From contig JBPCPW010000095.1 of the NCBI GenBank assembly GCA_050998755.1, positions 8,546 through 72,545 on the forward strand: 64,000 nt of DNA. Direction: 5' to 3'. The translations under genes and the position numbers were made by a program. Position 1 is the stretch's first letter. The number at the start of each line of letters is the position of its first letter. This DNA comes from Candidatus Dormibacteria bacterium. Its GTDB lineage: Bacteria > Chloroflexota > Dormibacteria > DASZGP01. Positions 16,900 through 22,287 of this stretch are shown here, piece by piece. The notes beneath the pieces are model-generated. The model was not told where the DNA came from, searched no databases, and saw only the letters and a program-made list of their open reading frames with translations.

Positions 16900-19268
16900 A
16901 CCAGCTCTACCCGCCTCGTGGCGGAAAGAGAAAGCACGTTAACAAGCGAATAGCGAAGAACTTCAGTTGAGATCCTGGAAGGCCATCCAGCCGGAACGGG
17001 TCTCATGTCGAAAAGTAGTTGGGTCAACACAGTTGAACCAGCATCGAGTCCCCCGAGCGCCACGGCGTGAAGGGTGCGGAGAGGCTGGGGAGACCAGGTT
17101 GATCTGAAAACGCAATCAAGCCTTCCTACAAAGAGGTGAAAACTGGCTTCTGCCGAGGGGCCAGGAGGATTGCGTCGTGTGCTGGTTTGCGCTAGGCGAA
17201 AGAATGCGCCGAAAGGTGCAGGAAGTCGTCAAGCCGCTGTGAAGTGGCGATAGGTAGGTCAAGCTAGCAAGAGCACACGGTGGATGCCTTGGCATCAAGA
17301 GCCGATGAAGGACGTGGTTACCGACGATACGCCTCGGGGAGCTGGAAACGAGCTTCGATCCGAGGATTTCCGAATGAGGAAACTCAGCGCAAGTAATGTT
17401 GCGTTACTCCCGCCTGAATATATAGGGCGGGTAGAGGGCACCCGGGGAACTGAAACATCTAAGTACCCGGAGGAAGAGATACTCCCTTAGTAGTGGCGAG
17501 CGAACAGGGACCAGCCCAAACCCCTTTTGCGTGATAGGCGGCAGCCGTTTCAGAAGGGGTGTTGTGGGAGCCACCCGTTATCCCTGCCGGGGTAGCAAGG
17601 AGTTACAAAATCGCTGTTTAGTTGAGCGGCCCTGGAAAGGCCGGCCACAGAGGGTGACAGCCCCGTAAACGAAAAGCAGGCGATCTCCTGGAGGATTTCC
17701 CAAGTACCACGGGACACGCGAAATCCCGTGGGAATCTGCCCAGACCATTGGGTAAGGCTAAGTACTCTTGATGACCGATAGCGGATAGTACCGTGAGGGA
17801 ATGGTGAAAAGTACCCCGGAAGGGGAGTGAAATAGTACCTGAAACCGTGTGCTTACAAACCGTGAGAGCACTATGCCGGTTTACCGGAATGTGTGATTGC
17901 GTGCCTTTTGTAGAATGAGCCGGCGAGTTACTTCTCTGTGGCAAGGTTAAGGGGTTTACACCCGGAGCCGAAGCGAAAGCGAGTCTGAATAGGGCGTGTT
18001 GTAGTCGCAGGGAGTAGACCCGAAACTGAGTGACCTATCCATGGTCAGGCTGAAGCGCAGGTAAAACTGCGTGGAGGGCCGAACCGACCCCGGTTGAAAA
18101 CGCGGCGGATGAACTGTGGATAGCGGTGAAATGCCAATCGAACTCAGATATAGCTGGTTCTCCTCGAAATGCATTTAGGTGCAGCGTCATCGATTCAGTG
18201 TGTCGGAGGTAGAGCACTGAATGGGCTAGGGGCCATCACCTGGTTACCAAACCCAATCAAACTCCGAATGCCGATACATATTGCGATGGCAGTGAGACAG
18301 TGGGGGATAAGCTTCATTGTCGAAAGGGAAACAGCCCAGACCCTCAGCTAAGGCCCCAAATTTGTGGCTAAGTGGTAAAGGAGGTCGGGTTGCTCAGACA
18401 ACCAGGATGTTGGCTTAGAAGCAGCCACCATTTAAAGAGTGCGTAATAGCTCACTGGTCGAGTGATCTGGCGCCGACAATGATCGGGGCTCAAGCCATGA
18501 GCCGAAGCTAGGGATGGCGTCGTAAGACGTCGTGGTAGAGGAGCGTTCTGCGTGCAGCGAAGCTGAACCGTGAGGATTGGTGGAGCGCGCAGAAGTGCGA
18601 ATGCCGGCACAAGTAGCGAGAAAAACGTGAGAAACGTTTTCGCCGTAAGCCTAAGGTTTCCTGGGCAACGTTAATCGTCCCAGGGTTAGCCGGGCCTAAG
18701 CCGAGGCTGAAAAGCGTAGGCGATGGACAACTGGTCATAATTCCAGTGCCACCAAAGTTCGTTATGAGCGATGGAGCGACGAAGAAGGATAGGTACAGCG
18801 CACGATTGGATGTGTGCGTGTAAGCAGGTAGGCGGTTCCCGTAGGTAAATCCGCGGGAGCATCAACGCCGAGATGTGATGCCGAGCCTGGTAACAGGCGA
18901 AGTGGCTGATTCCAAGCTTCCAAGAAAACCTTCTAGCCAGAACTAGGTGCCCGTACCGCAAACCGACTCAGGTAGGTGGGAAGAGGATTCCAAGGCGATC
19001 GAGAGAAGTGTAGTTAAGGAACTCGGCAAAATACCTCCGTAACTTCGGGAGAAGGAGGGCCCCCTGGGGTAATGGACCTCGCGTCCTGAGCTCTGGAGGG
19101 CCGCAGAGAAAAGGCCCAACCGACTGTTTACTAAAAACACAGGTCTCTGCTAAAGCGAAAGCTGATGTATAGGGGCTGACGCCTGCCCGGTGCCGGAAGG
19201 TTAAGGGGAACTGTTAACGCGGTGAACTGAAGCCCCGGTGAACGGCGGCCGTAACTATCAAACCGAGG

Positions 19269-19530
19269 TAGTTATAAAACCTGGCCATATGCTGGAATAA
19301 CCGTCCTGAGAAAGGTGAGTATCCCGTGGTAGAGCGTGAGCTCTGACAATCCATCGGGTGCGGTCAATCAGCAGGAAAGGCTCTCCGCAGGGAGAGAATC
19401 CTCAGAGACTAGACGCCAGGCGCCACTGTAAAGCGGTGATGATATAGTCCGATCTTACGGGCGACCGTGAGAGCTGCTCAGAAATGTAGCAGCCGTCTCA
19501 GACGAGAGACGCAACAATAATGAACGGTCC
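19269..19530 (+). mobile_element. group I intron 1 (ORF-less) in 23S helix 69, after E. coli U1917
   Basis: Exon GTAACTAT|...|AACGGTCCTAAGG. Preceding exon U, intron terminal G. Internal guide GTAGTT pairs with exon AACTAT. Shares blocks with intron 4. Confidence 0.75.
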
Positions 19531-19576
19531 TAAGGTAGCGAAATTCCTTGTCGGGTGAGTAGAAACGAGCCCGTAC

Positions 19577-20245
19577 CGGCTAATATCGGTGGAGCCCTAT
19601 TGACGGCGTGCGACTGTCACGGGTGGTACCGAGGGAAGTCGCCTTGCAAGAGGTTGACCCCGTATCGACTGAGGCTTAAGTGCCGAGGGTTGCCACGCTT
19701 ACGCAAGGGCGTAAAATTTATGTGGTGGCCAAGACGCCGGTGAGTTTCGATGTGAACCTCCCTTCGTACATATCTGGTTACGTTGACGGAGAGGGATGCT
19801 TCACCGTCTCGTTCTCAAGGCGCATGAAGATGCGTGGAGGATGGGAAGTGAGGCCGAGCTTTTCGGTCAGCCAGAACTCAGACCGTGCAGAGGTGCTGCT
19901 GGAGATCCAGGAGTACCTCGGATGCGGAACGATTCGCCCAGATCGGAGCGACAAGACCATGAAGCTCGAGGTGCGCAGCATCGCGAACTTGGTCGAGAAG
20001 GTCATTCCTCACTTTGAGAGGTACCCGATGCGCTCCAGCAAACAAAGGGATTTCGAGTTCTTTGCCAGGGTATGCCAGCTCGTAAGCGCTGGCGAACATC
20101 TGACGCCCGCCGGCTTCCACAAGGTGGTCGGAATGGCAACTCAGATGAACAGCTCTGGCCGGCGCAAATATAGCGCCAGTGAGATGCTCGATAGCTCGGA
20201 GCTCAGAGTTATAGTCAGCACCCCCAGGAACGGGGGATAGAAGCG
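19577..20245 (+). mobile_element. group I intron 2 (encodes a LAGLIDADG endonuclease), after E. coli U1951
   Basis: Exon CCTTGTCGGGT|...|AAGTTCCGACC. Intron ends in G. Guide GCCCG pairs with exon TCGGGT. 5' part homologous to intron 3. Confidence 0.75.
19680..20240 (+). CDS. LAGLIDADG homing endonuclease (single-motif, I-CreI-like) inside intron 2
   Basis: Motif YISGYVDGEGCFTVSF plus downstream conserved blocks. Real start may be the GTG at 19722. Confidence 0.8.
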   Translation: MPRVATLTQGRKIYVVAKTPVSFDVNLPSYISGYVDGEGCFTVSFSRRMKMRGGWEVRPSFSVSQNSDRAEVLLEIQEYLGCGTIRPDRSDKTMKLEVRSIANLVEKVIPHFERYPMRSSKQRDFEFFARVCQLVSAGEHLTPAGFHKVVGMATQMNSSGRRKYSASEMLDSSELRVIVSTPRNGG

Positions 20246-20767: not shown

Positions 20768-21026
20768 CAATTAGTGGCTCCTCGCCCGAGCGATCGGGCG
20801 ATGATACAGTGGCTCATATCGGTGAAGCCCGCCGGCAGCTCAAACTGCCAGGGTAATACCGAGGGAAGTCAGCTCCATTTGAGCTTGACCCCGTAACGAC
20901 TTCTCGCAACCGCGAGAGATGGAGGTCGCTACCTCGTGAGAGCTAAATCTATGACCTCCATAAAACGCCACCATCTCACCGAGATGAAGGTATAGTCTGC
21001 GCTCCGAGAAATCGGAGACATTAGCG
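20768..21026 (+). mobile_element. group I intron 3 (ORF-less) in 23S domain V, after the position aligned to E. coli U2473
   Basis: Exon CCCAAGAGT|...|TCACATCGACGG. Intron ends in G. Homologous to intron 2 (ATATCGGTG, TACCGAGGGAAGTC, TTGACCCCGTA, TATAGTC). Confidence 0.7.
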
Positions 21027-21157
21027 TCACATCGACGGCAAGGTTTGGCACCTCGATGTCGGCTCGTCGCATCCTGGGGGTGTAGTCGCTCCCAAGGGTT
21101 GGGCTGTTCGCCCATTAAAGCGGTACGCGAGCTGGGTTTAGAACGTCGTGAGACAGT

Positions 21158-21853
21158 GGAATTGAACGCGCTGTCTATAAATCTGGCTATATGCTGGAAT
21201 ACCCGAGTATCCCTCGCTACTATCCCGAACAGATGTTTGGTATAGTGACAATGTGGAGGGTGCGGGCAATCAGCAGGAAAGGCTGGATAGCTACATGGCT
21301 GGGTTCGTTGATGGCGAGGGTTGCTTCGCCATCTCGGTCCAGCGCAACATTTCCTGTCGGACCGGTATTCAACTTGTACCCGAGTTCCATGTCAGCCAGA
21401 ACGGCGATCGAGCAGAAGTGCTCGGTCTCCTTCAAGAACGGCTGGGGTGCGGGTACATACGGAGTAACGGGCGGAAAGATCGAGCACTGGTATTCGTGGT
21501 GCGGAGACGAGAGGATCTCCTCGAGAGGGTAATTCCCTTCTTTGAGGCGAACCCCCTCCTGTCCTCCAAGCACAGGGAATTCCAGACGTTCGCGGTCATC
21601 GTGAGAGCGATGGCAGTGGGCCGGCATCTCGCAGATGCGGGCTTTCGTGAACTCCTAACTGCGGCCCTCCTGATGAATGGGGGCGGCCGCTTCCGACAGA
21701 AGCAATGGTTAGAGATCAGCTATCCAGAATCCTCAGAGACTACATGCCGGACAGGAGAGATCCTGAAGATATAGTCCGAGCTGCATGGCGACATGCAGAG
21801 CTAGGCAGAAATGCCCTGGCCCCGACCCATGACGGGTCGTGGTAACAAAACTG
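21158..21853 (+). mobile_element. group I intron 4 (encodes a LAGLIDADG endonuclease) in 23S domain V, after the position aligned to E. coli U2604
   Basis: Exon GAGACAGT|...|TCGGTCCC. Intron ends in G. Guide GCTGTCT pairs with exon AGACAGT. Homologous to intron 1 (ATATGCTGGAATA, GGTCAATCAGCAGGAAAGGCT, GATATAGTCCGA). Confidence 0.75.
21253..21774 (+). CDS. LAGLIDADG homing endonuclease (single-motif) inside intron 4
   Basis: Motif [15 protein letters not shown]. 173 aa. Similar architecture to the intron 2 ORF (shared blocks RAEVL..LGCG..R and VIPFF/VIPHF). Confidence 0.85.
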
Positions 21854-22287
21854 TCGGTCCCTATCCGCCGTGCGCGTAAGAGTCTTGAGAGGAGTTGACC
21901 TCAGTACGAGAGGACCGGGTTGAACGAACCTCTAGTGGACCGGTTGTTCCGCCAGGAGCACCGCCGGGTAGCCATGTTCGGATGGGATAAGCGCTGAAAG
22001 CATCTAAGTGCGAAGCCCACCTCAAGATAAGGACTCTCACCGGGTTAACCGGGTAAGGCCCCAGCGAGACCAGCTGGTTGATAGGCCGGAGGTGTAAGAG
22101 GAGCGATCCTTTGAGCTGACCGGTACTAATAGGCCGAGGGCTTGACCATTTACCTATCCCACTTCACAGCGCAATTAGACATTCATGTCGACCAGCACAC
22201 AACTGCTAGGGCCGGCTGGAGTTCTTCGCATTCGCGTGCTTTCCTCCGGGAGATCGGGGGGCACAAATTAATACGGCTCAGAGAAGT

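Follow-up and report, generated by a model that had tools for sequence, protein, structure and literature searches.

Organization of the 23S rRNA gene

The DNA analysed here (the window) is a stretch of 64,000 nucleotides (nt) of contig JBPCPW010000095.1 from a Candidatus Dormibacteria bacterium. It contains one complete rRNA operon, located with Rfam on the forward strand, which consists of the 16S rRNA gene (14821-16323), genes for tRNA-Ile and tRNA-Ala in the spacer, the 23S rRNA gene (17257-22148, with the start taken from the Rfam model RF02541, LSU_rRNA_bacteria) and the 5S rRNA gene (22289-22404). Four insertions on the same strand divide the 23S rRNA gene into five exons (17257-19258, 19523-19556, 20246-20767, 21027-21157 and 21854-22148), which have a spliced length of 2984 nt. 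The insertions are I1 (19259-19522, 264 nt), I2 (19557-20245, 689 nt), I3 (20768-21026, 259 nt) and I4 (21158-21853, 696 nt), and they follow U1917, U1951, U2473 and U2604 of the Escherichia coli 23S rRNA, respectively; introns at these sites are referred to below as L1917, L1951, L2473 and L2604. An initial annotation, made from the sequence alone, had interpreted them as four group I introns, and this is borne out by the alignment with E. coli, by the Rfam group I intron model RF00028, by a covariance model (R1) built from related introns, and by empty sites in close relatives.

The boundaries were set by aligning the region, minus the candidate insertions, to the E. coli 23S rRNA gene (L001). 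The spliced exons are colinear with it at about 70% identity, in agreement with the colinear exon blocks noticed earlier. Exon T and intron-terminal G can be read directly at each junction (T19258/G19522, T19556/G20245, T20767/G21026 and T21157/G21853); thus, the last nucleotide is G (omega G) in all four introns. The initial annotation had placed I3 and I4 correctly, whereas its limits for I1 (19269-19530) and its start for I2 (19577) were 8 to 20 nt off. Its statement that every insertion follows an exon U and ends in G holds for all four only at the corrected boundaries, to which the exon and guide sequences that it quoted also belong. We also considered the classic L2593 site for I4 and rejected it, since the alignment puts this intron 11 nt downstream, at 2604.

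According to the alignment with E. coli, all four insertions sit inside universally conserved 23S rRNA sequence. We take the sites to be conserved core positions of domains IV and V, and position 2473 presumably belongs to helix 89, adjoining the peptidyl transferase centre. From insertion sites in this core, obligate splicing, as suggested in the initial annotation, can reasonably be inferred. The exon between I1 and I2 (19523-19556) is a micro-exon of only 34 nt, a length that follows from the spacing of the L1917 and L1951 sites, and its skipping during splicing is a risk. The Rfam large-subunit match covers the whole 2925-position model, yet its end, at 21244, falls about 900 nt short of the true 3' end (near 22148), because the introns derail the alignment.

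Ribozyme structures

I1 and I4 belong to one ribozyme family, the L1917/L1931/L2604 type without the paired region P2. I1 matched RF00028 with 60.2 bits, above the gathering score of 50; the start of the match is 45 nt too early, since P1 is assigned to the exon by the model. In I1, P3 (19280-19285/19415-19420) and P4 (19290-19295/19369-19374) are followed by UCAGAGACUA (19402-19411), P8 (19421-19438), GAUAUAGUCC (19441-19450), P9 (19454-19471) and the terminal G (19522). This intron has no open reading frame (ORF) and no P2, its folding z-score is -3.35, and it shares 78-82% identity with the L1917 introns of other genomes. Over the complete ribozyme, I4 and I1 are 76% identical, and I4 differs by a 173-aa ORF in the P6 loop. 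Its elements are P3 (21182-21187/21746-21751), P4 (21192-21197/21271-21276), UCAGAGACUA (21733-21742), P8 (21752-21765), GAUAUAGUCC (21768-21777), P9 (21781-21798) and the terminal G (21853). P3 is compensated between the siblings (CCUGGC/GCCAGG in I1 and UCUGGC/GCCGGA in I4), and the core of I4 is 85-88% identical to that of L2604 introns of other genomes, mostly Actinomycetota.

I2 and I3 form a second ribozyme family, which is IA-like in that P7.1 and P7.2 lie between P7 and the P3 3' strand; as expected of a group I core, P3 crosses P7. For this family we collected 24 L1951 introns from bacterial genome contigs and seven L2473 introns from metagenomes. MAFFT alignment of full-length introns misaligned the variable loops, and therefore long loops were trimmed before modelling, after the core elements had been located by regular expressions in 31 of 34 family sequences. 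R1 was then built from 14 loop-trimmed L1951 and L2473 introns, all from other loci. RNAalifold recovered P2, P3, P4, P5, P6, P7.2, P8 and P9 from the same 14 introns, with compensatory changes in 33 of the 45 pairs. R1 matched I3 over its full length (193.1 bits, E=8e-57, 20767-21026, model positions 1-264) and I2 in two parts (85.6 bits, E=1e-24, 19575-19739, model positions 41-203; and 12 bits, 20210-20236, model positions 229-255), with only 21 and 10 bits for I1 and I4. Thus, a group I core, which the initial annotation had expected covariance models to detect, is found by RF00028 in I1 and by R1 in I3 and I2.

P3 covaries, and all five of its pairs are formed in each of the 31 parsed family members, in seven sequence versions (CCGGC/GCCGG, GUGGC/GCCAC, GCAAC/GUUGC, GCAGC/GCUGC, CCAGC/GCUGG, CUGAC/GUCAG and AUGGC/GCCAU). 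P5, P8 and P9 likewise covary. In I3, which has no ORF, the unconstrained minimum-energy fold reproduces P2 to P9 (z=-6.1). Its elements are P2 (20783-20800), P3 (20809-20813/20967-20971), P5a (20834-20849), P6 (20863-20892), P7 (20897-20901/20994-20997), P7.1 (20902-20917), P7.2 (20919-20961), P8 (20972-20986), P9 (21002-21017) and the terminal G (21026), the P3 5' strand and the P7 3' strand having been narrowed by hand from longer located strings. The elements of I2 are P3 (19576-19580/19736-19740), P6 (19633-19661), P7 (CGACU, 19666-19670, with AGUC, 20213-20216), P9 (20221-20236) and the terminal G (20245); here, three strands were assigned manually, namely the 5' one of P7, the 3' one of P3 (5 nt) and the 3' one of P7 (4 nt). 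Between guide and P3 (19557-19580), I2 lacks a P2 hairpin, which most of its L1951 relatives have; the only other P2-less L1951 intron seen is that of an Anaerolineales (Chloroflexota) metagenome-assembled genome (MAG; L080). Introns orthologous to I3 are present at L2473 in ten loci (L093, L102, L137, L148, L154, L156, L181, L202, L203 and L205).

Guide sequences

Three of the guide pairings proposed in the initial annotation proved to be real, namely GUAGUU (19268-19273) with AACUAU in I1 (6 bp), GCCCG (19569-19573) with CGGGU in I2 (5 bp) and GCUGUCU (21170-21176) with AGACAGU in I4 (7 bp). The weakness of P1 in I3 that it had pointed out was confirmed as well: the guide GCUCCU (20777-20782) forms four contiguous pairs with the exon (GAGU/GCUC, including a G.U pair), and a mismatch follows. 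However, all eight parsed L2473 introns have the GCUC core, preceded by G or, in L181, by A; the weak P1 of I3 is therefore a property of the lineage and not a sign of decay. Among the L1951 introns, the guide is TTGCCC in 21 of the 23 parsed, and in L076 it is CTGCCC, with the GCCC core intact. The L1951 intron of a Candidatus Adlerbacteria contig (L064) follows a changed exon, CUGGU (UGUCUGGU instead of the usual UGUCGGGU), and its guide is GCCAG (within TTGCCAG) and not GCCC(G); this compensatory change of exon and guide supports the P1 assignment. The P1 guides of the L1951 and L2473 lineages are one base apart (GCCC and GCUC), and they match the targets GGGU and GAGU, respectively.

Endonuclease genes

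As had been noticed initially, two of the introns carry LAGLIDADG ORFs, both of which we could assign to Pfam LAGLIDADG_1 (PF00961). The ORF of I2 (19680..20240, forward strand, 186 aa, E=1e-26) starts with GTG at 19680, with further in-frame GTG codons at 19722 and 19725, and lies in the P8 loop; that of I4 (21253..21774, forward strand, 173 aa, E=2e-20) also has a GTG start and lies in the P6 loop. Each ribozyme family of the window thus has one member with a LAGLIDADG_1 gene (I2 and I4) and one without an ORF (I3 and I1). The two products are 48% identical to each other and are single-motif proteins, with the motifs GYVDGEGCF and GFVDGEGCF, in which the acidic (V)DGEG motif is kept. Both are full length when compared with thousands of metagenomic homologs: homologs of I2 ORF with the same 186 aa are 78-89% identical, and the best homolog of I4 ORF (P0001), also of 173 aa, is 94% identical. 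Among solved structures, I4 ORF matches those of LAGLIDADG proteins, including the I-OnuI type.

Both reading frames extend into the core of the ribozyme (19680-19747 and 20199-20240 in I2; 21253-21290 and 21733-21777 in I4). I2 ORF overlaps P7.2, the P3 3' strand, P8, the P7 3' strand and P9, and its stop codon is 5 nt before the 3' splice site. In I4, the P4 3'/P6 part of the core codes for GA(D/G)NQQER, an N-terminal peptide conserved throughout the family of I4 endonucleases, and the stop codon is the UAG inside GAUAUAGUCC (the P7 3' strand).

In the L2473 introns with an ORF (L093, L102, L148, L154 and L156), P6 contains the gene for another enzyme, of about 200 aa. This enzyme belongs to Pfam LAGLIDADG_2, so that the endonuclease family of these relatives of I3 differs from that of the sister L1951 introns (LAGLIDADG_1). 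Its nearest solved relative is I-SceI of the yeast mitochondrial omega intron (E=1e-14); in L093, the intron is at 1558-2391. The omega intron differs from the present case in its insertion site, and the host of the window is bacterial and its own L2473 intron has no ORF.

Empty and occupied sites in close relatives

Metagenome contigs with 96-100% exon identity to the 23S rRNA gene of the window were used as its close relatives, and each intron was found to be individually present or absent among them. In L093, the 1917, 1951 and 2604 sites are empty and the 2473 site is occupied by an 834-nt intron with an endonuclease gene. L202, which is 95% identical to the window over 1.6 kb, has introns at 1951 (689 nt) and 2473 (260 nt), and is empty at 1917 and 2604. 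L203 is occupied at 1917 (the contig begins within the intron), 1951 (691 nt) and 2473 (305 nt), and is empty at 2604. L205 covers only 2473 (occupied, 304 nt) and 2604 (occupied, 693 nt), and L204, 97% identical to the window over 1.1 kb, covers only 2604 (occupied, 696 nt); the 2604 site of L206 is also occupied. Every empty site is identical to the spliced junction of the window, without a mismatch over 50 nt, and the intron boundaries are thus fixed independently. The question of intron-free copies, which the initial annotation had raised for other operons of the same genome, is answered at the population level, with relatives that are empty at 1917, 1951 and 2604. The first position of L205, a soil contig from ENA, corresponds to the first exon base after I2 (20246 of the window), and I3 and I4 follow; a polymorphic intron boundary may be where the assembly broke.

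These contigs also bear on the possibility of a chimera, in which rRNA pieces of different organisms were joined during the assembly of a metagenome bin and the four introns thereby combined. Misassembly of rRNA operons is common in such bins, and exact look-up of three window proteins found no exact copies. However, independent assemblies from other samples contain nearly identical introns in other, overlapping combinations (I2 and I3 in L202; I1, I2 and I3 in L203; I3 and I4 in L205; I4 in L204), and the operon is embedded in 64 kb of ordinary chromosome with Dormibacteria-like genes. The flanking genes include dnaX and those for a class A penicillin-binding protein, SMC and topoisomerase I, the last of which shares 82-86% identity with proteins from genome bins of 'Candidatus Dormibacteria'. 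We therefore give the chimera hardly any credence.

Distribution and spread

To survey related introns, one genome per bacterial species was scanned with the endonuclease alignment; more than 599 stretches matched and 433 were confirmed. The 23S rRNA gene was mapped in 80 loci, which were selected by endonuclease homology, so that the following counts are not population frequencies: L2604 introns were present in 43 loci, L1951 introns in 25, L1931 introns in 19 and L1917 introns in 12. They are spread over Actinomycetota, Omnitrophota, Gammaproteobacteria, Acidobacteriota, Armatimonadota, Chloroflexota and the candidate phyla radiation (CPR). In this set, two to six or more insertions per gene are often found, and several genes have three to six or more; outside CPR, L071, L041, L033, L058, L181 and L102 have four to six or more; in the Acidobacteriota MAG L071, the insertions are near 1923, 1952, 2262, 2503, 2594 and 2657. 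None of the 62 endonuclease-selected loci that cover position 2473 has an intron there. In metagenomes, a search for the DNA pattern ATAGTC N{20,50} TCAYATCGACGG gave at least eight L2473 introns and at least five introns near L2449 among the 120 matches listed; the pattern is too permissive, and most of the listed matches are chance occurrences in protein-coding DNA.

The introns closest to each intron of the window are found at the same site in other phyla; its sibling in the same gene is less similar. For this reason, we rejected a recent origin of I1/I4 or I2/I3 by duplication within the gene. The 23S rRNA exons of the host are only about 77% identical to those of the genomes with the closest same-site introns. 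Judged from these sequence comparisons, the pattern would fit horizontal spread of site-specific intron lineages and not duplication within the gene.

Elsewhere in the window, an RNA of the large bacterial type of signal recognition particle RNA (154 bits, 11324-11586) lies directly upstream of dnaX (11625-13373), and an ORF just downstream of the 5S rRNA gene (22461-23684) combines response-regulator receiver and MinD/CpaE-like ATPase domains.

Predicted splicing and homing

It is highly probable that the 23S rRNA gene of this Dormibacteria-related bacterium is interrupted at 1917, 1951, 2473 and 2604 by four mobile group I introns of two ribozyme families, which would be removed by splicing and spread by homing. 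After transcription, each intron would fold and its guide would pair with the last four to seven exon bases, which end in U (G.U wobble); two guanosine-dependent transesterifications would then remove each intron, and the exons would rejoin into a 23S rRNA of normal length. The two endonucleases would cut intron-less alleles at 1951 and 2604, by which I2 and I4 would be copied into them. We infer that the introns splice, that they do so autocatalytically and that both endonucleases are active.

Several observations weigh against this interpretation. In the search with RF00028, proposed as a check in the initial annotation, only I1 exceeded the gathering score; I4 matched over its 3' half with 34.5 bits (E=3.9e-6) and I3, searched alone, over its full length with 24.8 bits (E=1.7e-4), both below that score, and I2, searched alone, gave no match. 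The orthologs of the I2/I3 type also score only 24-28 bits, over nearly the whole intron (27.7 for L137 and 24.4 for L052), and the low scores are explained by long ORFs in P6 or P8 and by the P7.1/P7.2 insert. P7 is invariant in the I2/I3 family, and thus covariation speaks neither for nor against this helix. The predicted splicing of I3 may need help, as its P1 has 4 bp and it encodes no maturase or endonuclease. If a second, intron-free operon exists in the genome, the copy in the window need not be functional.

One possible explanation that takes up these points is that the insertions are decayed or inactive in a non-functional copy of the operon, or that the 23S rRNA works as unligated fragments in the manner of RNase III intervening sequences. 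The endonuclease gene is absent from I1 and I3, either lost or never present, and the scores of I2, I3 and I4 and the weak P1 of I3 would also be compatible with decay. An intervening sequence of bacterial 23S rRNA takes the place of a variable helix tip and has a long terminal stem, which is cut by RNase III, and the break in the chain is tolerated. The insertions in the window, however, are in the conserved core of domains IV and V and not at helix tips, and their fold is that of group I cores and not a single long RNase III stem. Furthermore, the exons are intact and as closely identical to those of the relatives as given above, with perfect junctions; the operon is complete from the 16S rRNA gene through tRNA-Ile, tRNA-Ala and 23S to 5S; all core helices are intact and, in the I2/I3 family and apart from the invariant P7, covarying; and both endonuclease ORFs are full length. 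Thus, decay or fragmentation appears very unlikely, and functional introns are the preferred interpretation.

Another possibility is that removal of the introns is not entirely autonomous, and that the ORF-less I1 and I3, or perhaps all four, require the LAGLIDADG protein of I2 or I4 as a maturase, or a chaperone or helicase of the host. The short P1 of I3 would agree with such a requirement. A LAGLIDADG protein of a Thermotoga 23S rRNA intron has reported maturase-like activity (PMC3984707), and, for Coxiella, involvement of an RNA helicase is proposed in the title of a paper cited in PMC4990558. Apart from ribozyme cores that look complete, nothing in the present data counts against such a requirement; we regard it as rather unlikely, though a good deal more plausible than decay. 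Protein-assisted splicing would in any case refine the interpretation as group I introns and not replace it, and autonomy is least certain for I3.

Comparison with known systems

In Coxiella burnetii, self-splicing introns at L1917 and L1951 are reported to be removed by splicing from the 23S rRNA precursor (PMC4990558), and the L1951 intron has 720 nt with an ORF of 157 aa (Table 1 of PMC1995217); among the titles of Coxiella papers cited in PMC4990558, exon skipping is also mentioned. Coxiella shares with the window the same two sites, the same 34-nt micro-exon and a LAGLIDADG ORF in the L1951 intron, whereas the window differs in its Dormibacteria-like soil host and in its further introns at 2473 and 2604. 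One of the Coxiella introns is said to lack the terminal G; both corresponding introns of the window end in G.

In Synechococcus sp. C9, one 23S rRNA gene contains three group I introns that encode endonucleases, at L1917, L1931 and L2593 (Haugen et al. 2007, PMC1995217), and the overlap of ORF and ribozyme core was described for cyanobacterial introns in the same paper (PMC1995217). Like the window, Synechococcus C9 combines several introns per gene, an L1917-type ribozyme that lacks P2, another of IA-like type with P7.1 and P7.2, and single-motif LAGLIDADG ORFs reaching from a peripheral loop into the core of the ribozyme. The window differs in having four introns (1917, 1951, 2473 and 2604), only two of them with an ORF, and its P7.1/P7.2 type is at 1951 and 2473, in contrast to 2593 in Synechococcus C9. 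In CPR bacteria, up to 16 insertions per 23S rRNA gene were found (PMC11270868), and group-I-like insertions encoding LAGLIDADG_1 are concentrated at 1917, 1931, 1952, 2593, 2604 and 2657 (Tsurumaki et al. 2024, PMC11270868). As in the window, versions with and without an ORF occur at the same sites; however, the host of the window does not belong to CPR. Since bacterial 23S rRNA genes with several introns have thus already been published (Coxiella, Synechococcus C9 and CPR), the window is a good example and not a new kind. The intron load, regarded as unusual in the initial annotation, is so only against cultured bacteria; genes of this sort are published and frequent among the 80 loci fetched here, and it is now known that they are common in uncultured bacteria.

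Site 2473, the least familiar of the four, is not named in the text of PMC11270868, and one supplement of that paper has no entry for 2472-2474. We found neither the labels L2473 and L2604 nor any naming of site 2473 in the literature searched, and likewise no paper there that treats Dormibacter together with introns or 23S rRNA. We propose tentatively, with slightly more doubt than confidence, that 2473 is an undescribed group I homing site, whose ribozyme, sister to the L1951 lineage, was retargeted by the one-base change in the guide and is partnered with an I-SceI-like LAGLIDADG_2 enzyme in P6, not with LAGLIDADG_1 in P8, and that the sampled population shows every stage of the homing cycle at the four sites, namely empty, with an endonuclease gene and without it.

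Implications

Our results leave the knowledge of how group I introns work unchanged. For the practice of annotation, they mean that an automatic procedure would truncate this 23S rRNA gene, and that rRNA surveys based on primers or models will mishandle such genes. The 34-nt micro-exon and the site in helix 89 bear on how ribosomes are assembled around several introns. Furthermore, empty, endonuclease-bearing and ORF-less alleles at the four sites form a natural series in the related contigs, which is suited to work on homing, loss of the endonuclease and transfer across phyla. The occurrence of intron-rich 23S rRNA genes is extended here to a Dormibacteria-like lineage.

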